From assembly GCF_013315695.1 (NCBI RefSeq), contig NZ_CP054353.1: a DNA stretch of 64,000 nt; one strand, 5' to 3'. The position numbers and the translations under genes were made by a program. The stretch's first letter is position 1; the number at the start of each line of letters is the position of its first letter. Positions 25,952 through 42,953 of the stretch are shown here, one piece after another. Source of the DNA: Escherichia coli (GTDB taxonomy: Bacteria; Pseudomonadota; Gammaproteobacteria; Enterobacterales; Enterobacteriaceae). Below the pieces are notes generated by a model that ran no database searches, was not told where the DNA came from, and worked only from the letters and a program-made list of their open reading frames with translations.

Positions 25952-27889
25952 ATGAGCAAAAAACATTTTGAGTTGATTACCGCCATGAGCCGTACGGAGC
26001 TGGCTGAGAAAGTTAACGAACGTCTGGCGCTGGGCTGGCAGCTTCAGGGCGACGCACAGGTTGCGTCAGAGCCGGGCGTGCCGTGGTATTTGATGCAGGC
26101 CATGACCGGTGATCAGCCCGTCACCGACGAGCCGCAAATTGCTGTGGATGACGAAGGGAACACAATCAACGAACCGGAATACTACTTCGTCATTGCTCTG
26201 GCCGGGCAATCCAACGGCATGGCGTATGGCGAAGGTCTGCCGCTGCCTGAGACATACGATCGCCCCGATCAGCGCATTAAGCAACTGGCACGCCGCAGTA
26301 CTGTCACGCCGGGTGGTGCGTCCTGTAATTACAACGACATTATTCCTGCGGACCACTGCCTGCATGATGTTCAGGATTTGAGTAAGTTTTCACACCCGAA
26401 AGCCAGCGCAGCTCAGTATGGATGCGTGGGGCAGGGATTACATATCGCGAAGAAATTGTTGCCGTTTATTCCGGCGAATGCGGGCATTCTTCTGGTTCCG
26501 TGCTGTCGTGGTGGATCTGCGTTTACTACAGGGGGTGATGGCGCTTTCAGTGAAACAACCGGTGCAACAGAAGCATCGTCTCGTTGGGGGGTCGATAAAC
26601 CGTTATACAAGGATCTACTCACCCGAACAAAAGCCGCACTGAAAACCAACCCTAAAAACATTCTGCTTGCAGTGGTCTGGATGCAGGGCGAGTTTGACTT
26701 AAAACAAACAACGGCATATTCCAACCAGCCAGCGGCGTTTGATGCCATGGTGGCAAAATACCGCTCCGATCTGGCGGGCGTATCAGGTCAGTGCGTTGGT
26801 GGCTCTTCATCATCAGTACCCTGGATTTGTGGTGATACAACTTATTACTGGAAAGAGACATATCCAACCGAGTACGGTGTTGTCTATGGCGCATACAAAA
26901 ACAAGCAGGCTAAAAACATCTTCTTTGTGCCGTTTATGACGGATGAAAACGGTCAGAATGTTGGCACCAACGAGCCAGATGAAGATCCTGATATCACTGA
27001 AATCGACTATTACGGTTCTGGATGGCGCAAAGATAAAACCACATGGACAACGGCAGATCGTAAAACTCACTTTGGCTCATGGGCACGTCGGGGAATTATT
27101 TCAGATCGTCTTGCTACAGCAATAATTGAGCATGCAGGTAAAACGGAAGCACTTGTTTATGGCAGGGTAACGCTCAGTAAAGAGGAAGAGCGCCCGGAAG
27201 AGGAAGATGAACCCATTGTAAAACCCACAGCTGAACAGTCAGTTATACTTTACGACGCTAAAAATGCCTCAGATACCAATTTACAGGCGCTGAACTGGGA
27301 GTTGAAGGATGTCACCCCCTCTCTGATTCAGGAGGGAAGTAATAAGGCGTTGCGTCTTGAGAAAAGCAACAGTGCGAAACCATGGTCATTACTTCATAGT
27401 ATTGCAGCCGAAAAATCAGGACAACTTCTGGAAAAAGGCGGAGAAATTTCCGTTCGCTTCAAAATACCTGAAAACACCTCTCTTGATACAGGAAAAAATA
27501 AGTATGTGTTAGGGCTGTACTGGAAAATAGCGGGATGGCCAGGTGATGGCGGAGAAGGCTATCTGAGTTCTTTTCTTGTTCAGACAGATAAAGCAAACCT
27601 GGATGTTGTTTACCATTACAACAGTAATCAACTGAAAGATATTGGTACATTTGATGAGTTTGATCATGACTGGCATACGCTCGCATTCAGGTTTGAAGGC
27701 GGTAACAGCCTCAGCGTTACACCGGTGCTCGATGGTAAAGATGGTCAGGCGTTTGATCTTGTTAAGTGGACTAATTCAGCTAATGAGGCCAATAAGTTTA
27801 TTTTGACCGATATTACTGGCACAGCTGAAACGTATCCTGTCCTTATTGAGACAATCGAAGTTAAAGCAAACCAGGCAGCAGCGAAATAA
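25952..27889 (+). CDS. sialate O-acetylesterase, NanS-p-like (SGNH/SASA domain with C-terminal lectin-like region)
   Basis: 645 aa; GQSN block (ALAGQSNGMAYGEG); size and domain order match prophage NanS-p esterases as recalled; inserted between lysis and tail genes. Confidence 0.7.
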   Translation: MSKKHFELITAMSRTELAEKVNERLALGWQLQGDAQVASEPGVPWYLMQAMTGDQPVTDEPQIAVDDEGNTINEPEYYFVIALAGQSNGMAYGEGLPLPETYDRPDQRIKQLARRSTVTPGGASCNYNDIIPADHCLHDVQDLSKFSHPKASAAQYGCVGQGLHIAKKLLPFIPANAGILLVPCCRGGSAFTTGGDGAFSETTGATEASSRWGVDKPLYKDLLTRTKAALKTNPKNILLAVVWMQGEFDLKQTTAYSNQPAAFDAMVAKYRSDLAGVSGQCVGGSSSSVPWICGDTTYYWKETYPTEYGVVYGAYKNKQAKNIFFVPFMTDENGQNVGTNEPDEDPDITEIDYYGSGWRKDKTTWTTADRKTHFGSWARRGIISDRLATAIIEHAGKTEALVYGRVTLSKEEERPEEEDEPIVKPTAEQSVILYDAKNASDTNLQALNWELKDVTPSLIQEGSNKALRLEKSNSAKPWSLLHSIAAEKSGQLLEKGGEISVRFKIPENTSLDTGKNKYVLGLYWKIAGWPGDGGEGYLSSFLVQTDKANLDVVYHYNSNQLKDIGTFDEFDHDWHTLAFRFEGGNSLSVTPVLDGKDGQAFDLVKWTNSANEANKFILTDITGTAETYPVLIETIEVKANQAAAK

Positions 27890-31650: not shown

Positions 31651-34632
31651 ATGAGCGTGAAATTTAAAACTGTGATCACTAAAAGCGGCGCAGCAAAAAT
31701 CGCCGCAGCGACCAGCGCATCAGGAAAAAAAGTCAACATCACGCACATGGCCGTTGGTGATGGTGACGGTAATTTACCTACCCCCTCCTCATCCCAGAAA
31801 AAACTTATTCGTGAGGTCTGGCGCGGCACACCAAATAAGGTCGTTCAGGACAGCAAAAAACCAAACCAGATTATTGCTGAGCTGGTCATCCCTCCTGATG
31901 CCGGTGGATTCTGGATGCGTGAAATTGGGTTGTTTGATGACTCGGGAACGCTGATCGCTGTTGCCAATATGGCCGAAAGCTACAAACCGCTGCTGTCTGA
32001 AGGTTCCGGCAGGGCGATGACATGCCGCATGGTTATTGTCATCAGCGATGTAAGCGCGGTGAAGGTGTCTGTGGACACCACGACGATTATGGCAACCCAG
32101 GATTACGTTGATGATAAAATCGCTGAGCATGAGCAGTCGCGCCGACATCCCGATGCCACCCTGACCCAGAAAGGCTTCACCCAACTGGACAGCTCGGTAA
32201 ACAGTAGCAGTGAGGCGAAAGCTGCAACACCAAAAGCAGTAAAAACACTGAACGATACAAAGGCCCCGCTGAACAGCCCTAAGCTGACCGGAACACCGAC
32301 TGCCCCCACGGCAGCAAAAGGGGTCAACAACACCCAGATAGCGACAACCGCTTACGTGATGGCAGCAATCGCTAATTTAGTGGACTCATCACCGGACGCC
32401 CTGAATACGCTGAACGAGCTGGCGCAGGCGCTGGGAGATGACCCAAACTTTTCTGCCACCATGACAAAGGCACTGGCCGGAAAGCAACCCCTTGACGCCA
32501 CGCTGACAGCAATAGCAGCACTGGCTACAGCAGCTGATAAACTGCCTTACTTCACCGGAAGCGACAAGGCAGCACTGACAGCGCTGACGAAAGTTGGCCG
32601 GGACATTCTCGGGAAGGCATCCGTCAGTGAGGTCATTACATACCTGGGCCTCACTAACACCATCACGCAGGCATCGGGCGCACTTCAGAAAGCACAGAAC
32701 GGTAAAGACATCCCGAATAAAGCAACTTTTCTGACGAACATTGGCGTTACCAGCCAGACATTCATGAAGCACAACGGAGAACTGCCCGAAGATGCGGACC
32801 TGAATACCTATGGCCCGGTTGCGGCAACACTGGGAACATGGGGAAAAGCCTCATCAACCAATGCAACGATCGCTAAAAATTTCCCGGAAGAGAGCGCTGT
32901 GGGGATACTGGAAGTCCTTACTGGCGGATCATTTAACGGAACGCAAAGGTACACCTGCCGCAGCGGGAATATTTATGTTCGGACCCTGACCGCCAGATGG
33001 AACGGTACAAACGGACCATGGGGAGTGTGGCGAAACGTACAGATGGCGACCAGGCCACTTAGCACAACCATTGATCTGAATACCCTGGGGAATGCAGGTG
33101 ATATCGGCATATGGAGGAACAGTAACGCCAGTATTGCTTCATTCACCAGAAACTACCCCGAAGAAGGCAATAATGCCCAGGGGATTCTCGAGCTTATGGA
33201 AGGGGGTGCGTATGGGCGAACCCAGCGCTACACGACCATTCTCGGGAACGTGTATATTCGCACCCTTACAACAACATGGGACGCGTCCGCGCCGAAATGG
33301 GGAGGGTGGCACAGAGTCGGACATCAGTCTGACGGGGCATATCGTGATGATGACCTGAACACCATGAAAACGCCGGGCATTTACAGTGTGACCAACAAGG
33401 CAAAAAACGGCCCCATGAAGAGCGGAAATGAAAATTTGCTGGGGATCCTTGAAGTCATAAGGCGACTGGATGGCAGAACCTTTGTGCAGCGTTACACCAC
33501 AGCCGGAACGGCGACACTGACCCGGGGGCGATCTTTTGAAAGAACCTTCAGCGGTGACGCCTGGACAGAATGGCGGGAAATCTATAACTCATTCAGTCTT
33601 GCCCAGAGTCTGGGGATGGGTCGTGCGGTAGCAAGACTATCCAGCCTGGACTGGCAGACCTACGACTTTGTACCTGGCAGTTTGATCACCGTTCGGCTGG
33701 ATGACATGACCAACATTCCTGACAGCATGGACTGGGGGGTTATCGATGGCAACATAATAAATATTGCCGTTGGCCCGAGTGAGGATTCAGGTTCTGGCAG
33801 GTCAGTAATGGTATGGCGCGGTACAGTAAGTAAAGCGAACTACCGTTTCTTTATGGCACGAATTGCCGGGAATCCGGGAAATCGCACGATCACAACAAGA
33901 CGAGTACCAATTATTGATGAAGCCCAGACGTGGGGGGCAAAACAGATATTCAGTTCTGGCCTTTCAGGTGAGTTATCCGGCAACGCATCAACTGCAACAA
34001 AACTTAAAACCGCTCGCAAGATTAACGGCGTTGCGTTTGATGGTTCGGCAAATATTGAAGCGTTTCCCCCCGGCGTTCCACTGCCGTGGCCATCAGATAC
34101 ACCACCTGCTGGCTATGCCATTATGCAGGGGCAAACCTTCGACAAGGCAAAATACCCGAAACTTGCCATTGCCTACCCGTCAGGAAAGCTTCCTGATATG
34201 CGGGGATGGACAATCAAGGGGAAACCCGCCAGCGGTCGGGCGGTATTATCGCAGGAGCAGGACGGTATTAAATCGCATACCCATACGGCCAGCGTGTCAA
34301 AGACCGATCTGGGTTCGAAAACGACCAGTTCATTTAATTATGGAACCAAAACAACCAGCACAGGCGGGAGACACGAGCATGATGTTCCGCTCAAGTATCA
34401 GAACGGTGGCGGTGTAAACTTTGACTGGCTGGACGGAGCATCAAACAGTGGTGTTATTGCATACGGTAAAGTACCTGCCGCCGGTGAACACACCCACACC
34501 GTGGCAATCGGGGAGCACACTCATACCGTCCCATTGGGATCACACGGGCACGGCGTGACCGTTAACGCCACAGGCAACACGGAAAACACCGTGAAAAACA
34601 TTGCGTTTAACTACATCGTGAGGCTTGCATAA
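31651..34632 (+). CDS. tail fiber protein, P2 gpH-like N-terminus with long divergent C-terminal domain
   Basis: 993 aa; N-terminus [23 protein letters not shown] resembles P2 H; C-terminal HxH repeats ([24 protein letters not shown]). Confidence 0.85.
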
Positions 34633-35378
34633 TGACCTTTACAATGGAAGACGAAGCCAGAATGCTTCACGTATTTCATATTCACCCGGAAACCAGCGAA
34701 CTGACTGGAGAAAGCGACGTATATATCCCACCGTATACCGGGTTGCCCGCAGGCTGTACGACGACCGAGCCGCCACATATCCCGGAAGGGTTCGTGGCGC
34801 TTTTTGATGACGTGCGCCAGCGCTGGGAGCTTGCAGAAGATCACCGGGGAAAAGTGGTGTGGAATACGGCATCCGGGGATGAGATCGCAATTACGGAAAT
34901 CGGACCGCTACCTGAAAATACAACAACGGCAGCCCCGTCAACAGCCGCAGACAAGTTTATTGATGGCGAGTGGAGAGAAGATCGCAGTCTGGCAATCAGC
35001 ATAAAAAATAACGAGATAAACGAATGGCGAAGCACCATGGAAGCCGCGAATTACGTTTTCACGTTCAATGGTCGTAGCTGGGATTACGGAAAAGAAACCC
35101 AGTCCCGGCTGGATCCATCAGTGACAGCCGCAAAGTCCGGGTTATTACCGGAGGGATTTTTCTGGACGGATGCCGATAACAACGATATCCCGGTTACCGC
35201 AGATGAATTGATCGCACTGAGCAATGCTGCATCTGCTGCAATGTTTACCAAGGGAATGGAAATACATATCCGGCAACGGGAAATGAAAAAAGCCATAGAG
35301 GAATTACAGGACCCCGGCGAAATCATGGCATACCCGGTGGGATGGAAAACAGATACCGGAGACGGTGCCGGTGAGTGA
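34632..35378 (+). CDS. tail fiber assembly chaperone (gpG/Tfa-like)
   Basis: 248 aa directly after and overlapping the fiber gene. Confidence 0.7.
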   Translation: MTFTMEDEARMLHVFHIHPETSELTGESDVYIPPYTGLPAGCTTTEPPHIPEGFVALFDDVRQRWELAEDHRGKVVWNTASGDEIAITEIGPLPENTTTAAPSTAADKFIDGEWREDRSLAISIKNNEINEWRSTMEAANYVFTFNGRSWDYGKETQSRLDPSVTAAKSGLLPEGFFWTDADNNDIPVTADELIALSNAASAAMFTKGMEIHIRQREMKKAIEELQDPGEIMAYPVGWKTDTGDGAGE

Positions 35379-35383
35379 AAGTT

Positions 35384-35408
35384 AAAACGCCCGACTGACG
35401 GGCGTTTT
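35384..35408. terminator. bidirectional terminator between convergent G and U (aaaacgcccg-actgac-gggcgtttt)
   Basis: Perfect 6-bp GC stem flanked by A-run and T-run. Confidence 0.7.
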
Positions 35409-35410
35409 AA

Positions 35411-35887
35411 TTATCTTACCAGCGCCAGCGCAGAACTGATGCCGGACTTAATATTATTTGTCAGATCTCCCAGAGATGAAGACTGAAGACGTTCGCGGAG
35501 ATCTTCATTCACACGCTGAAAGGTCACCGTAAACTCAATCTTCCGCGCCTTGCCATAGCGATCAAGCTCTGAACGCGTGGTATTCAGAGCGGTAATAACG
35601 TACATACCGTAAATCTGCCCGACACCATCAATCAGCGGCCATGGACGTCCAGCATACGCCTGAGTTGTCAGCGCGGTAAGTGAGACTTCACCGCCTGTAA
35701 TTTCCGGGTAGAGAAGACCGGAAAGCGTGATGGTATCGTCACCCGCGCCGATATACTGCCAGCTGGCCGAGCGATTGATTCGCTCATTCTTCACGTGGCG
35801 CCAGTTACGGGACTGCTGTATTTGTTGGTGTGGCAGCGTGCTTAACTGAAAAACAAACATGCCGTAAATCATCATCATAATCACCAC
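35411..35887 (-). CDS. tail protein, P2 gpU-like
   Basis: About 155 aa; last gene of the FI-FII-E-T-U order; exact start among several Met codons unresolved. Confidence 0.75.
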   Translation of the reverse strand: MVIMMMIYGMFVFQLSTLPHQQIQQSRNWRHVKNERINRSASWQYIGAGDDTITLSGLLYPEITGGEVSLTALTTQAYAGRPWPLIDGVGQIYGMYVITALNTTRSELDRYGKARKIEFTVTFQRVNEDLRERLQSSSLGDLTNNIKSGISSALALVR

Positions 35888-35889
35888 TC

Positions 35890-38748
35890 CTAATCACGAT
35901 CGCGGAAGCTGTTCATCCCGGCGGATTGTCTGCGAATTTCTTCCCGTACAGCCTCCCCCACCATTCTGGCAAGGTCGCGCGGGTTCTGCGTCGCCACGTT
36001 GTGAAGATGAACGTGGATTTCCCCACCGAACACAGACGACGGTTCAGGAGAGCGCGAAGCCTCCCGGGTAGCCGGGGAGACTGGCGCCCACTGCTTAACC
36101 TCCACGGAACGGGAAGCATCCCGGGAGACCTCCGGAGGCACAGGCGAAACCGGAGGCATAACCGGTAGTCCTGGCGCAACAGTCGGCTCATTCCACTGCC
36201 CGCGAACAGCCAGCGCACGGGGGAGGTTTTTAAACACGATATCGCCGGGACCGATACGCTTGCGGGCTTCATGAAGCATGCCCGACGTATTACCCTCGAT
36301 ACCTTTAAGCCTGCGAAGAACGGCGCTGTTACCGCTGGTTATGCCGGGGGGATTGCTGGTTTTACCGTCATTCTGTGGATTACCATTCCCGTTGTTATTA
36401 TTGCTGACAGGAGCGGCCGGAGTGGGTACCCAGGACTTCTGAACCATTTTTTTCTGAACAGGGTCCCACTCCCACATAACCGGAGCCTTTGCAACTGCCT
36501 CAGCACGATTTTTCGCCCGCTCAACTTCAGAAGGGAGCACGCCGAGTTTTTCCAGCACCCATGCCAGGCCGTCCATCAACGCCTGAAGAGGAGTAAGCGC
36601 AAGCGATATCGCCCCGCTGAGCACGCGACCAAAAGTTTCCCCGACCGAGGCACACCGTTCAAGAGATTCATGGCTGGTCTGAACAGGTGTGAGTAACCGC
36701 CTGAACCAGTCATACACCGTGGACACCGCACCCGATACCAGATCAAACAGCGGCGCAAACTGAGCAACACCTTCACGAACAGGCGCAAGGCCAGCCCACA
36801 GCGCCCGGAATGTTCCGAGCATAAAAGCCTTAACCTGTTCCCAGTGACGCCATATGAGCAGCGCTCCACCGGCAAGGGCAGCAACCACGAGACCAACAGG
36901 ACTGAGAAGACCGGCAAGCGCCCCGCCCAGCACTGAAACCGCACCGGATACCATCCCCCACAGTGCCGGAAGGCCAGACAGGCGAAGGGCAAGACCACCA
37001 ACGCCAGTTGCAACAGAGGAAAACCCGCCACCAAGAAGCGCAGAGCCAAGCTGAAGTTTTGCAAAAATACCGGTCAGCACCCCGGAGGTCAGGGACAACG
37101 CCCCAAGGGCTGTCGTGGCCGCAAGAACACCACCGGCAACAATCGCCAGAGTACGCACCAGTTGCGGATTATCCTGAACCCATCCTCTGAGCCGTTCACC
37201 CCATGATACCGCTACCTGAACAAGTTCGCGGAGGTCATCGGTGACAAGGGCAACGACATCACTGCGTATACCGGAGAAGACACCAGACAGGCGATCGGCA
37301 TCACCGCCAAGGTTATCCCGCAGAACATCACCCATACGCCGGGCGGTTCCCTGCACCTGCCCCATACGGTCAGACACCGTTGCCAGCGAGCGGAGAAAAT
37401 CCGGGATCTGATCAACGGCCAGATCTTCGATGGGTGTGCCGAACAGCGCTATCGCCGCATTGGCTCGTTCCGCAGGATCCTGAATCTTCAGCAGCCCGGC
37501 AGCCGTTCGCTGCATTGCCTCGCGAGCAGCCGCGCCTCCGCTGGCAATCGCTGACAACATTTTTTCCGCATTAAGGCCAATCAGCCCATAAGCCTCAACG
37601 CTTGCTTTGGACATATCCGAGCCACGAATACTGAATTCCTTGACGGCATCGCCGGTTTTATCCAGGGCGAATTTCCCCTGCTGCGCCATGCTGACAAGCA
37701 GCGTCATGGTTTCAGAGCCGGAGAGCCCCATATTGCGGAAATGCGTGGAATACTCATGCAGAATTTCAGGAAGTTCGCCGCGCATTTCGGCGGACATTTT
37801 CTGCATGCCTGCCGCCATCAGGTCCACGGCCTCACCTGCATTTGCAGCGAGACCGTTTTTCAGCATGATGCCGGCCGCCTGAACCTGTTCAGCCACATTA
37901 CCGCCGGTGACCTGAGCAAGATCGATTGCCTGCCGTGTCACCCTCTCTAGTTCTTCAGTCCCTACAGTACCCAGTGCGCCAAGCGTGCTTTGCGCCGCAG
38001 CTGCCGCTTCGGAAATCATCGCGATATCCGTAGCCGCACCTGACGCACGGATGTTCTGAATCATACGGCTGTAGCGCTGGCCGTCTTCTGCGCTGCCTCC
38101 ACTCTGTGCCGCAATGAGCGCACCCTGCCGTTGCTCTTCAACAACAGGTGCAACCGCACGTCCGGCGGCGTACAGACCAGCACTGCCCGCTGCCATGGCA
38201 AGCGCACCGCGCTGGCTGAGTTTACCGGCGATATCCTGAACACGATCGTAACGTTGTTGTGCCTGCGTGACGCGCGCAAGCTGAGCCTGCTGGCGCTCAA
38301 GCTGATCGTTGTATTCCTGCGTTCGCCTGATTGCTTCTTCAGTGGTGCGGTTACTTCCGTCCGCCCGTATACCGTGAGACTCCAGCTCACGACCGGCTTC
38401 CCGTAGCCGGGACTGGTGAAGGGCGTAAACGGTATTAAGACGCTCAATCTTTGCAGTCAGTGAGCGGATAGCTTCCTGCTGTTTTTCCGTCAGTGTCGTG
38501 CCAGTACGCTGGACCTCCAGGAGGCGCTGAAGTCGCCCACGCGCCTCGTTCAGGCTGTTTTCAGTCGAGGCAACCTGCTGACGGGCACGGGAAAACGCAT
38601 CACTGCTTCGCTGGAGTGACTTAAGAGCGTTCTGCGTGGAGGAAAGAGATTCGGAAAGCGCGCCGGTCATTTCCCGGGCGCGCCTGACGGGTTGGGTGAG
38701 ACGGTCGACCGCAGTGAGGGCTACACGTATCTGGAGATTATTACTCAT
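35890..38748 (-). CDS. tail tape measure protein, P2 gpT-like
   Basis: 952 aa from ATG (MSNNLQIRV); Ala/Gly-rich helical protein; ORF-track frame extends to 38802. Confidence 0.85.
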   Translation of the reverse strand: MSNNLQIRVALTAVDRLTQPVRRAREMTGALSESLSSTQNALKSLQRSSDAFSRARQQVASTENSLNEARGRLQRLLEVQRTGTTLTEKQQEAIRSLTAKIERLNTVYALHQSRLREAGRELESHGIRADGSNRTTEEAIRRTQEYNDQLERQQAQLARVTQAQQRYDRVQDIAGKLSQRGALAMAAGSAGLYAAGRAVAPVVEEQRQGALIAAQSGGSAEDGQRYSRMIQNIRASGAATDIAMISEAAAAAQSTLGALGTVGTEELERVTRQAIDLAQVTGGNVAEQVQAAGIMLKNGLAANAGEAVDLMAAGMQKMSAEMRGELPEILHEYSTHFRNMGLSGSETMTLLVSMAQQGKFALDKTGDAVKEFSIRGSDMSKASVEAYGLIGLNAEKMLSAIASGGAAAREAMQRTAAGLLKIQDPAERANAAIALFGTPIEDLAVDQIPDFLRSLATVSDRMGQVQGTARRMGDVLRDNLGGDADRLSGVFSGIRSDVVALVTDDLRELVQVAVSWGERLRGWVQDNPQLVRTLAIVAGGVLAATTALGALSLTSGVLTGIFAKLQLGSALLGGGFSSVATGVGGLALRLSGLPALWGMVSGAVSVLGGALAGLLSPVGLVVAALAGGALLIWRHWEQVKAFMLGTFRALWAGLAPVREGVAQFAPLFDLVSGAVSTVYDWFRRLLTPVQTSHESLERCASVGETFGRVLSGAISLALTPLQALMDGLAWVLEKLGVLPSEVERAKNRAEAVAKAPVMWEWDPVQKKMVQKSWVPTPAAPVSNNNNGNGNPQNDGKTSNPPGITSGNSAVLRRLKGIEGNTSGMLHEARKRIGPGDIVFKNLPRALAVRGQWNEPTVAPGLPVMPPVSPVPPEVSRDASRSVEVKQWAPVSPATREASRSPEPSSVFGGEIHVHLHNVATQNPRDLARMVGEAVREEIRRQSAGMNSFRDRD

Positions 38749-39288
38749 CGTTATGATTCCCGGATCTGGCAGCCGCCCGCTCTCGCCAGGCAACAACCTC
38801 ACCAGGACTCATACCGAATATCTCTGCGGGCGACCAGTTAAAGACAACAGCGATATCAGCGACAAGCTCTTCGATATCGTCAAACAGGAGACGAATTACA
38901 TCACACCTGTATTCGTCTTTTTCTTGCCGGGCAAGGCCTTCGGCGAGAAAAAATACGTTGCCGCCGTGGAAAGCGCCCCGAAATCCTCCGTGCGCATGGT
39001 CGACAGTTCCGCTTCAGTAAGGCGGGGCTCTGTAACACGGCTGAGATAAACGCACATCGCGTTAAAGTTCAGGCTGTACAGGTGAGCCAGAGACAGACCA
39101 CGCAGTGAACCACTCTGACGGGCACGTTCGCCAATCTTCACATGTGTAATAACCTGTTCACCACGGACAACCGGAACGGTTAACTCAATGGGCTCACCGT
39201 TATAGGCAACCTCATTACCATCAGCAACATCAAAGTTGTCGACGTTATCAGCACCGGCAACCAGTACTTCGTTTTGTTTTTTTGACAT
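38741..39288 (-). CDS. predicted E+E' -1 frameshift product of the tail chaperone
   Basis: The -1 frame from the TTTTTTC site (plus 38947-38953) stays open to a TAA that overlaps the tape-measure ATG (ATGAGTAA). Confidence 0.5.
38896..39288 (-). CDS. tail assembly chaperone, P2 gpE-like (frame 0 product)
   Basis: 130 aa; lies between tail tube and tape measure; contains slippery heptamer T TTT TTC. Confidence 0.7.
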   Translation of the reverse strand: MSKKQNEVLVAGADNVDNFDVADGNEVAYNGEPIELTVPVVRGEQVITHVKIGERARQSGSLRGLSLAHLYSLNFNAMCVYLSRVTEPRLTEAELSTMRTEDFGALSTAATYFFSPKALPGKKKTNTGVM

Positions 39289-39333
39289 TGTGAAATTCTC
39301 CTGGCGGCCACACGACCGCCGTCAGTCAGTTAA

Positions 39334-39846
39334 TCAGCCAAGTCCCAGCATGGAGCGGGTGCGATCAGGCAGCACATCCTTGCCATCAACGCGCCAGATG
39401 AAGTTCAGCACGTCGATTTCAATAACATCGCTGTTATCAACGCTGAGCTTGTACCAGGTGCATTTCATCGCGTAGGTGTGTTCGGTATCTTCACCCTGTT
39501 TGGCCTCGCCCTTGTCGATTTCGACAATGCGACCACGGGCTTCAATATCGACGTACTCAATCCCTTCTTCGGAATAGTATTCACCCGAGAAGCGCACGCG
39601 TACCGCATCAATGCCAGCGGCATATTTGGCAAAGATGTGACGATCCATACCGCCAACCGCAAAGGAGAGATCCAGCGCACCATCATCAAGACCGAGATCC
39701 ACCGCCGCAGAGCCTGGCATACCCGCACCACGATATGCTTCCGTCTTGCGGGTCAGTTTCGGTGGGGTGAAGGAGGTCACCTTACCCAGTTTGTTGTCAC
39801 CGTCCACAAAGACGGTAAACACACGAAGTTTTTTTGGTACGGCCAT
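39334..39846 (-). CDS. tail tube protein, P2 gpFII-like
   Basis: 170 aa directly after the sheath gene. Confidence 0.82.
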   Translation of the reverse strand: MAVPKKLRVFTVFVDGDNKLGKVTSFTPPKLTRKTEAYRGAGMPGSAAVDLGLDDGALDLSFAVGGMDRHIFAKYAAGIDAVRVRFSGEYYSEEGIEYVDIEARGRIVEIDKGEAKQGEDTEHTYAMKCTWYKLSVDNSDVIEIDVLNFIWRVDGKDVLPDRTRSMLGLG

Positions 39847-41039
39847 CAGCTACCTCCCAGAGATGCAAAAGCAGAGCCAAAGAACTCGTCGGTAAACGTC
39901 TGATAGAGTTCCATGCATTCCATCGGTGGTACGGGCGTGTATTTGTAGCGAATGCGCACAATGCCCTGACGAAGACTGGTCGTGTTGTTGTCGACAATAT
40001 CGAACCAGCATTCCGCCCCAATGAGTTTTCCGGCCGTGACCAGGGAATCCAGTTTCGCCTTGATGGCACTTACTGCATCTTTCGCATTGGAAGGTGTCAG
40101 AGGCGAATCCACCACCTGAAGCTGCGCCTCTGCGATACTGTCAGCCAGTTGTTGCGCCGTGCGGGTGTACACCTCAAAGATATACTCCGCTGTTTCCGGC
40201 GTACGGTTCCCCCAGAAACGGAAGGAGCCGTCACCCTGGTGAATAATCGTGGTCACCTCACTGCTGTTCAGCGTGTTGGCATCGCTGTTTTCATCCTGAA
40301 GCGACCAGGAAACCGACGCAGAGATCCCGAGAACATTCTTCACAGGGATGTTTGAAAGAGAGCGATGCCAGCCCTGTTCGTGGTCGATTCGGGCACGAAG
40401 ACCGCACGCATACGCCGCAGCCGGGAAAGTTTCACTTTTACCGGACACGGGGTTGAACGCCGTGAAATCAGGCCACAGGAGCATGATTTCACGCCCGGAA
40501 ATCTTTTTGCGGAATGCAATGGCATCGGACGGTTTTGTGCATGCCGGACAGCCGGAATACGCAAAAGCTCGCATTTTGCCCGCAATCGTCACCAGTGCCG
40601 CCGTAACGGCATCGGACTCAAGACCGGGCGCTGCCAGGATACGCGGACGACAGCCAATCCCCTCCATCTGTTCAGCGACCAGAAGGGCCTGCATCCCCGT
40701 GTAACTGCCATCAGACTCCACAGTACCAATAACAAGCTGGTCCTGTGTCTTCTGGTCTTCCGCCTCCTTCGCTTCGGCAACACGCACGACGATAACGCGC
40801 GTGCTGACCTGATCGGAGATAGCCTTAAGGGATTTGTAGAGCGTCCCCTTTGTGCCAGCCTTACCCAGAACATTATTGACTCGTGTTAACAGCACCGGCG
40901 TGTCAAGCGGGAACTGCTCTTCGTCAGCATCATCTGCAACAGCAATAAGCCCAATGACGCTGGAATCAACGTCATTAATTGCCGTCACCAGATCGGTGTT
41001 TTCCCTGACGCGCACACCGTGAAATCGTGTTTCAGCCAT
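39846..41039 (-). CDS. tail sheath protein, P2 gpFI-like
   Basis: 397 aa; similarity to recalled P2 FI (WPDF, GLRARIDHEQGWH, FRFWGNRT, YTRTAQ). Confidence 0.88.
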   Translation of the reverse strand: MAETRFHGVRVRENTDLVTAINDVDSSVIGLIAVADDADEEQFPLDTPVLLTRVNNVLGKAGTKGTLYKSLKAISDQVSTRVIVVRVAEAKEAEDQKTQDQLVIGTVESDGSYTGMQALLVAEQMEGIGCRPRILAAPGLESDAVTAALVTIAGKMRAFAYSGCPACTKPSDAIAFRKKISGREIMLLWPDFTAFNPVSGKSETFPAAAYACGLRARIDHEQGWHRSLSNIPVKNVLGISASVSWSLQDENSDANTLNSSEVTTIIHQGDGSFRFWGNRTPETAEYIFEVYTRTAQQLADSIAEAQLQVVDSPLTPSNAKDAVSAIKAKLDSLVTAGKLIGAECWFDIVDNNTTSLRQGIVRIRYKYTPVPPMECMELYQTFTDEFFGSAFASLGGS

Positions 41040-42812: not shown

Positions 42813-42953
42813 ATGCCGCAAAAAACGATCATCGTGAGCATTTTATGCTTAACCATGTTGTTGACCGTCTGGATGATACACCGTTCGCCGTGTGAATTCA
42901 GACTTAACATCATGTGGTCAGAATTTGCGGCGTTCTTGCAGTGTAAACCGTAA
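42813..42953 (+). CDS. Hok/Gef-family type I toxin peptide, HokA-like (46 aa)
   Basis: Below ORF-track cutoff; AAGGAG RBS; MPQKTIIVSILCLTMLLTVWMIHRSPCEFRLNIMWSEFAAFLQCKP resembles E. coli HokA as recalled (MPQK..., WMI, LCE, AAFL.CK). Confidence 0.65.
   Translation: MPQKTIIVSILCLTMLLTVWMIHRSPCEFRLNIMWSEFAAFLQCKP

Follow-up and report, generated by a model that had tools for sequence, protein, structure and literature searches.

A putative tail fibre gene and the gene of its predicted assembly chaperone lie side by side in a 64,000-nucleotide (nt) window of an Escherichia coli genome (contig NZ_CP054353.1 of assembly GCF_013315695.1; all positions are those of this window, and features are on the plus strand unless stated otherwise). 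The window is identical in sequence to chromosome NZ_LR898874.1 of E. coli MSB1_4I, and the element that carries the two genes is an intact P88/P2-like (Peduoviridae) prophage of that strain. The fibre open reading frame (ORF; 31651..34632) encodes 993 amino acids (aa) and the chaperone ORF (34632..35378) encodes 248 aa. The stop codon of the former and the start codon of the latter overlap in TAATG, which suggests translational coupling of fibre and chaperone, and a search for promoters and terminators between or after the two genes yielded nothing convincing. Both ORFs are placed after homologues of gpV, gpW, gpJ and gpI in a complete P2-like prophage adjoining serS, the position occupied by gpH and gpG in P2. 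The P2 proteins measure 669 and 175 aa, in line with the initial annotation, which had described a fibre of ~990 aa compared with ~670 aa in P2 and a chaperone that is also longer. The whole locus is carried by only 1 of 5426 complete E. coli genomes.

Domain organisation of the tail fibre

The first 151 aa of the fibre (31651..32103) form a P2 gpH-type N-terminal baseplate-attachment domain (Pfam PF12571, Phage_tail_fib; E 1.6e-53), and the gene follows gpI as in P2. The shaft comes next (aa 152-373; 32104..32769), with a Phage_fiber_2 match (PF03406; E 2.5e-14) at aa 170-202. Over aa 1-360 the protein is 62% identical to P2 gpH, which has one extra repeat, and the P2-like N-terminus proposed earlier is thus borne out. 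Beyond aa 360 (aa 405 of P2 gpH) we obtained no significant alignment to P2 gpH, aa 406-669 of which are unrelated to aa 361-993 of the fibre and lack the His-x-His (HxH) motifs described below. The P88 fibre (764 aa) likewise aligns solely inside aa 4-360. The protein therefore has the N-terminal Phage_tail_fib domain and the operon position of a P2-type gpH and lacks the P2-type C-terminal receptor-binding region. Judged by these alignments, all of the fibre distal to aa ~360, together with the whole chaperone, is replaced relative to P2 and P88/Xuanwuvirus.

The extra length relative to P2 is mostly due to three tandem knob-like repeats of ~90 aa (aa 374-647; 32770..33591), which are bounded at aa 374-467, 468-558 and 559-647. 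A self-BLAST of the fibre overlooked these internal repeats and direct alignment confirmed them, with 37-43% identity to the first repeat and 18 invariant columns that include DLNT, GILE, QRYT and two W residues. Homologues of the region carry the NCBI name 'pyocin knob domain-containing protein' and are found in P2-like fibres, on a plasmid and in the 'large distal tail fiber subunit' of Shigella phage JK23. An AlphaFold2 monomer model of aa 361-800 reached a predicted local distance difference test score (pLDDT) of 68, and its top Foldseek matches were the knob-containing phi11 receptor-binding protein (5EFV) and the R1/R2 pyocin fibres (6CL5/6CL6), with a probability of 1.0, E values of 2e-6 to 5e-5 and low TM-scores. 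Given these low TM-scores and this pLDDT, we hold the assignment of a tandem knob fold with moderate confidence. A scan of both proteins with the NCBIfam profile hidden Markov models gave no matches. The pyocin fibres resemble the fibre described here in their tandem knobs, their HxH iron site and their P2 gpH-like N-terminal anchor domain (PMC7882524). They differ in having two knobs, one shaft iron site and a lectin-like C-terminal foot, in contrast to the three knobs and the gp37-type needle with five predicted sites found here.

Between knobs and tip lies a beta-rich segment with a [26 protein letters not shown] connector repeat (aa 648-801; 33592..34053), recognised by DNA homology and in the AlphaFold2 model, where the region is beta-rich with a pLDDT of 55-85. 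Over nucleotides 1912-2703 of the query, many fibres of Peduovirus and of E. coli prophages are ~80% identical in DNA, and the segment is common to the fibre of P24C9 up to aa 809.

From aa 802 onward, and nowhere upstream, the fibre is homologous to gp37 of T4. In a phmmer search against the PDB, aa 802-993 matched chain residues 26-242 of the T4 gp37 tip structure 2XGF (E 9.4e-64), and by BLASTP the same segment is 56.6% identical to aa 810-1026 of T4 gp37. The likeness to metal-binding fibre tips, which the initial annotation had noticed, is thus a real homology. The tip of T4 gp37 consists of a collar domain, D10, and a needle domain, D11, in which HxH histidines of three chains hold seven iron ions (PMC6957217, PMC6116203), and HxH iron sites also occur in pyocin fibres (PMC6116203). 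With the D10 boundaries of PMC6957217, the collar equivalent spans aa 802-874 (34054..34272), placed by alignment to 2XGF and by a Pfam Collar match (PF07484) at aa 808-855 (E 3.6e-11; 43.3 bits, cut-off 24). The D11-equivalent needle spans aa 875-976 (34273..34578) and is followed by a C-terminal strand back to the collar (aa 977-993, with a [14 protein letters not shown] end, plus stop; 34579..34632) that is recognised by its conservation. T4 gp37 shares the collar, the needle with HxH motifs and the identical C-terminal strand; the tip described here is carried by a P2-type fibre that would be fixed straight to the baseplate, whereas the long fibre of T4 is made of four proteins.

The [24 protein letters not shown] string for which an HxH-repeat tip had been claimed is present in the fibre. 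Five HxH motifs lie at aa 876, 908, 947, 956 and 965, and all 10 histidines of the last 124 aa fall inside them. When the protein was shuffled 20,000 times, no shuffled sequence had five motifs, and the highest number obtained was three. All five are in register with motifs of T4, which has seven in total, and the needle region is 26 aa shorter than that of T4 gp37. One of the two absent motifs belongs to the descending strand and one to the ascending strand, a paired loss, as would be needed to shorten the needle by two sites. Tandem Repeats Finder detected no repeat in the DNA of the HxH region, so the 9-aa periodicity of the motifs is conserved at the protein level and does not reflect a recent DNA duplication.

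Conservation along the tip is uneven. The last 17 aa (977-993) are 88-100% identical in T4, in the phages P24A7b and 613R2 and in a Salmonella Mu-like prophage fibre. The collar is 71% identical to T4 and 94-96% to P24A7b and 613R2 (65-96% when the Salmonella prophage tip is included), and the needle flanks are 69-74% identical to T4, P24A7b and 613R2 (61-74% with the Salmonella tip). At the needle's distal end, aa 906-944 (34366-34482) are hypervariable, with 23% identity to T4, 15% to P24A7b, 56% to 613R2 and 3% to the Salmonella prophage tip. In T4, residues that bind OmpC and lipopolysaccharide (LPS) line the needle tip (PMC6957217). Tips of the gp37 type are common: at E<=1e-10, 958 protein clusters were counted across E. 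coli, Salmonella, Citrobacter, Hafnia and Enterobacter. Among the matches listed, the nearest are 65-70% identical, one identical fragment apart, and the closest known tips show 65-80% identity when the final ~200 aa are compared. By these comparisons the sole distinctive part is the ~40-aa distal tip, at most 56% identical to the tips compared. The C-terminal domain is not identical to that of standard P2-like coliphages, since P2 and P24C9 lack HxH motifs and the closest tips reach 65-80%.

A predicted chaperone with gp38-type and DUF4376 domains

The chaperone consists of two domains. Its N-terminal part (aa 1-117; 34632..34982) is a beta domain of the gp38/Tfa type (Caudo_TAP_N) and is predicted, from this homology, to bind the fibre tip. 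Residues 12-140 are 32% identical to aa 1-127 of T4 gp38 (E 2e-17), which aligns with the N-domain only, and the N-domains of the Tfa proteins of P24A7b and 613R2, phages with the same tip type, are 45% identical. In hhalign comparisons with the gp38/Tfa proteins of phages with gp37-type tips (probability 100, E 1e-41), the N-domains alone align. The gpG proteins of P2, P24C9 and P88, phages in which the fibre has a different C-terminal part, show no similarity to the chaperone, and by these comparisons the N-domain co-varies with the fibre tip. The Tfa of P88, like gpG of P2, has 175 aa. The Pfam family PF28596 (Caudo_TAP_N) is precomputed on a 91%-identical homologue, P0001.

The C-terminal part (aa 118-248 plus stop; 34983..35378) is a DUF4376 domain (Pfam PF14301 at aa 125-227; E 3.9e-18, 66.3 bits, cut-off 25), a predicted oligomerisation or registering module. 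No Pfam match to Caudo_TAP (PF02413) was found in the 248-aa protein at E<=0.01, whereas gpG of P2, U and U' of Mu and the Tfa proteins of P24A7b and 613R2 match this family at E 1e-37 to 1e-40; T4 gp38 had no Pfam match in the scan. On this evidence the C-domain is a replacement, DUF4376 for Caudo_TAP, and not an extension, and the chaperone is longer than usual because its C-terminal domain is a different one. It has been stated that Mu U contains DUF4376 (PMC7882524); we reject this assignment, as both Mu U and U' (locus L014 2976-4062) match Caudo_TAP only.

DUF4376 proteins have been shown by experiment to be fibre chaperones, and both Alteromonas phage V22 and the CJIE1 H-fibre of Campylobacter need them for fibre function (PMC7289586, PMC10579305, PMC7882524). 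V22 gp27, A5 gp9 and the partner of the CJIE1 H-fibre share with the present protein a C-terminal DUF4376 and a gene directly downstream of the fibre, and DUF4376 chaperones have a similar predicted alpha-helical body with a beta-hairpin. They differ in the partner: the N-domain described here is of the enterobacterial gp38/Tfa type and goes with a gp37-type needle, whereas the Alteromonas chaperones pair with fibres that end in knob and head domains. The AlphaFold2 model of the chaperone (pLDDT 95) has an all-beta N-domain (pLDDT ~97) and a C-domain composed of a helix, a beta-hairpin, a helix and a long helix. A PDB sequence search with the chaperone returned nothing even at E 10, and fold searches with the model gave no significant solved neighbour and did not recover a likeness to the intramolecular chaperone domains of T5 pb1 and K1F.

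The family comprises 1325 representative clusters, and hundreds of full-length homologues from Salmonella are 50-55% identical. Full-length PHROG matches of the chaperone include phrog_1807 (E 9.8e-71), labelled 'tail fiber protein', and P-Eib ORF-191 and proteins named 'tail fibre (assembly)' from other E. coli phages share 66-70% identity with the DUF4376 domain. In the Salmonella Mu-like prophage a Caudo_TAP_N plus DUF4376 protein likewise follows a fibre that ends in HxH...[11 protein letters not shown]. This prophage (L010 4631-8651) has two successive pairs of fibre and chaperone, the first with a gp37-type HxH fibre and the Caudo_TAP_N plus DUF4376 protein, the second with a phage_tail_N/CarboxypepD_reg fibre and a 192-aa DUF4376 protein, so that DUF4376 serves as a C-module for different N-domains. 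An odd architecture was seen in the 652-aa protein P0241, which carries some nine tandem copies of a segment that matches aa 41-103 of the chaperone and is Caudo_TAP_N-like.

Relatives and prophage setting

Compared with cultured relatives, the fibre is a variant of a known design. The term 'enlarged' used in the initial annotation holds relative to P2 and needs to be qualified otherwise, since Peduovirus fibres of 874 aa (P24A7b), 919 aa (P24C9) and 948 aa (vB_EcoM-613R2) are known and two of them have the same plan of knobs plus gp37 tip. P24A7b and 613R2 both show three knob repeats, a beta domain and a gp37-type collar and needle. P24A7b is 55% identical to the query over aa 237-993 and 70% over the P2-type N-terminus (aa 1-202), and its fibre lacks the shaft at aa ~203-345. 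613R2 is 70% identical over aa 341-993 and gave no BLAST match to the first 340 aa of the query. The HxH motifs number six in P24A7b and seven in 613R2 compared with five in the query, and the chaperones of these two phages (192 and 205 aa) end in Caudo_TAP where the query has DUF4376. The fibre of P24C9 has aa 237-809 in common with the query, a different end and no HxH.

Sibling prophages occur in at least 11 other contigs, with 993-aa fibres (89% identical) and 248-aa chaperones (91%). When the sibling fibre (L006-L009 3020-6001) is compared with 31651-34632, aa 152-300 are identical at the protein level, and nucleotide divergence is 20-27% in aa 1-151 and knobs 1-2 (22-27% in knobs 1-2) and 2-6% in shaft aa 152-300 and from knob 3 to the tip (1.7% in aa 906-944). 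This mosaicism points to recent recombination breakpoints inside the fibre gene. The ratio of nonsynonymous to synonymous divergence (dN/dS) is 0.1-0.2 in every block, by which measure all segments are under purifying selection. Block-wise divergence with a low dN/dS is the pattern of recombination under purifying selection and not of diversifying selection, and we therefore reject positive selection on the knobs or the tip.

The nearest characterised backbone is P88 (Xuanwuvirus), with a sheath identity of 74%; when a 25-kb part of the prophage was compared, no phage record covered more than 14% of it, with a DNA identity of ~72%. The head, tail, baseplate, replication and control genes are all present and intact, and the lysis gene lysC is annotated as partial. 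P88 has the same gene order, V-W-J-I-H-G being encoded on one strand and U-T-E-FII-FI on the opposite one, followed by D and hok/gef. In the window, the tail genes U, T, E', E, FII and FI occupy the minus strand at 35379-41039, opposite to V-W-J-I-H-G, an unusual arrangement also found in P88 (locus L013). Between G and U, P88 carries an invertible segment that comprises an alternative fibre tip, a second Tfa and a DNA invertase, in contrast to the present prophage, where no such segment is found and the gap between the chaperone gene (G) and gpU is only 32 bp. A Hok/Gef-family toxin gene lies at 42813-42953 (plus strand), directly past ogr at the serS-side prophage end, and P88 has a hok/gef-family gene similarly placed, past its gpD homologue. 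Between the lysis genes and tail gene R, a gene for a 645-aa DUF6645 protein (25952-27889, plus strand) forms a low-GC island (0.42-0.46 versus ~0.54 in the surroundings) and looks like a cargo or moron gene; a defence function was rejected for it, as PADLOC gave no match.

Proposed assembly and receptor specificity, and module exchange

Based on these data, we propose, with a probability of about 0.85, that the two genes encode a receptor-binding tail fibre and its dedicated assembly chaperone, the fibre combining a P2-type end, knobs and a gp37-type tip, and that they work as follows. The fibre would be a homotrimer that docks on the baseplate through its P2 gpH-type aa 1-151 and continues, in order, with the shaft (to aa ~373), the three knobs, which may bind surface saccharides, the beta-rich domain and the gp37-type collar and needle. 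Each needle chain would run down and then back, so that its five HxH motifs would give five octahedral iron sites on the three-fold axis (seven in T4), and the ~40 residues at the turn (aa 906-944) would make up the distal head and touch the receptor, which would be either an outer-membrane protein or the LPS core. During assembly, the gp38-like N-domain would recognise the C-terminal tip of the nascent fibre, and the DUF4376 domain would gather three copies, allowing trimerisation in register from the C-terminus; the modular Tfa model on which this scheme draws is taken from the summary in PMC7882524.

The proposal builds on the domain homologies, the register of the motifs, the order and overlap of the genes and the modular mosaicism reported above; we infer the trimeric state, iron binding, dependence on the chaperone and the receptor from T4 gp37/gp38, TfaMu and V22 gp27. 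Several points weigh against it. Trimerisation, metal content and chaperone dependence are extrapolated from these systems, and the model of the middle of the fibre is of just moderate confidence (pLDDT 68). In addition, the DUF4376 and Caudo_TAP C-domains could not be aligned by hhalign, so the equivalence of their roles is argued from where the gene lies and from what has been published on other phages.

Within this framework, specificity is most likely set by the distal tip at aa 906-944, and possibly by the knobs, and not by the entire 400-aa C-terminus. The suggestion of a swapped receptor-binding module thus stands for the exchange itself, everything past aa ~360 and the chaperone having been replaced, and is to be narrowed as to where recognition would reside. 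A distinct host range is a plausible consequence of the module swap.

A reading to which we give some weight, though well short of even odds, is that specificity is set mainly by the tandem knobs, through lectin-like binding of LPS or surface saccharides, and that the knobs, not the gp37-type tip, are the swapped module. The fibre differs most from its siblings in knobs 1-2 (22-27% of nucleotides, compared with 5-6% from knob 3 to the tip and 1.7% in aa 906-944), Knob2 of the R-type pyocins is the most diverse and has been argued to determine the killing spectrum (PMC6116203), and knob-like domains bind saccharides in the K1F endosialidase (PMC6116203). However, the divergence in the knobs is block-wise, with a synonymous divergence (dS) of 1.1-1.3 and a dN/dS of 0.11-0.15, which argues for recombinational exchange and not for diversifying selection. 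Moreover, in comparisons between phage families the hypervariable part (3-56% identity) is the distal tip, set in a conserved scaffold, and the OmpC- and LPS-binding residues of T4 line the same needle tip (PMC6957217). Specificity set by the knobs and specificity set by the tip are compatible with each other.

It is unlikely, in our view, that the 248-aa protein remains on the mature tip, acting there as a cap or adhesin that takes part in receptor binding or masks it. TfaMu has been reported to stay bound to the Mu fibre and gp38 of T2/T6 is an adhesin (PMC7882524), the DUF4376 chaperones of Alteromonas phages have been proposed as transient 'caps', and full-length PHROG families, phrog_1807 among them, bear the label 'tail fiber protein'. 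Nevertheless, such PHROG labels are automatic names, and the N-domain is homologous to T4 gp38, a folding and assembly factor of gp37 (T4 record, PMC6957217), unlike the unrelated T2-type gp38 adhesin. No adhesin-like hypervariable loops were seen in the protein either, and its DUF4376 domain diverges from that of the sibling by 6.6% of nucleotides, with a dN/dS of 0.14.

A more speculative idea, which we consider quite improbable, is that DUF4376 is a second, non-homologous C-terminal oligomerising module that can replace Caudo_TAP on the same gp38-type N-domain and gp37-type tip, and that it may build a trimeric cap, prefoldin-like and with beta-hairpin 'tentacles', which remains on the needle until the receptor is contacted; if it were true, the chaperone gene would co-determine host range or protect the tip. 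That the locus is a decaying prophage remnant with a non-functional fibre and chaperone is very improbable: although the full locus is rare (1 of 5426 complete E. coli genomes) and lysC is annotated as partial, the head, tail, baseplate, replication and control genes are intact, the fibre and chaperone ORFs are both full length, and both lengths are unchanged in the sibling copies, which occur in at least 11 contigs and show a dN/dS of 0.1-0.2.

Returning to the proposed fibre and its assembly chaperone, the locus is a new allele, or combination, within well-known families and not a new kind of system, and the swap of host-recognition modules that it records, while real, is ordinary and holds nothing unexpected for a phage specialist. 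Two features are mildly interesting, the exchange of Caudo_TAP for DUF4376 on a constant pairing of N-domain and tip, and the shortened needle. The former could guide the choice of chaperone in the engineering of fibres for phage therapy or tailocins. More generally, the locus is a clear natural case in which unrelated phage families have exchanged tail-fibre modules horizontally: a P2/P88 chassis carries a T4 gp37-type needle without the tip-switching invertible segment of P88. The occurrence of the same tip type and chaperone N-domain with either Caudo_TAP or DUF4376 fits the modular Tfa model, and the needle, with its five predicted sites, suggests that needle length can change through the paired loss of HxH units.

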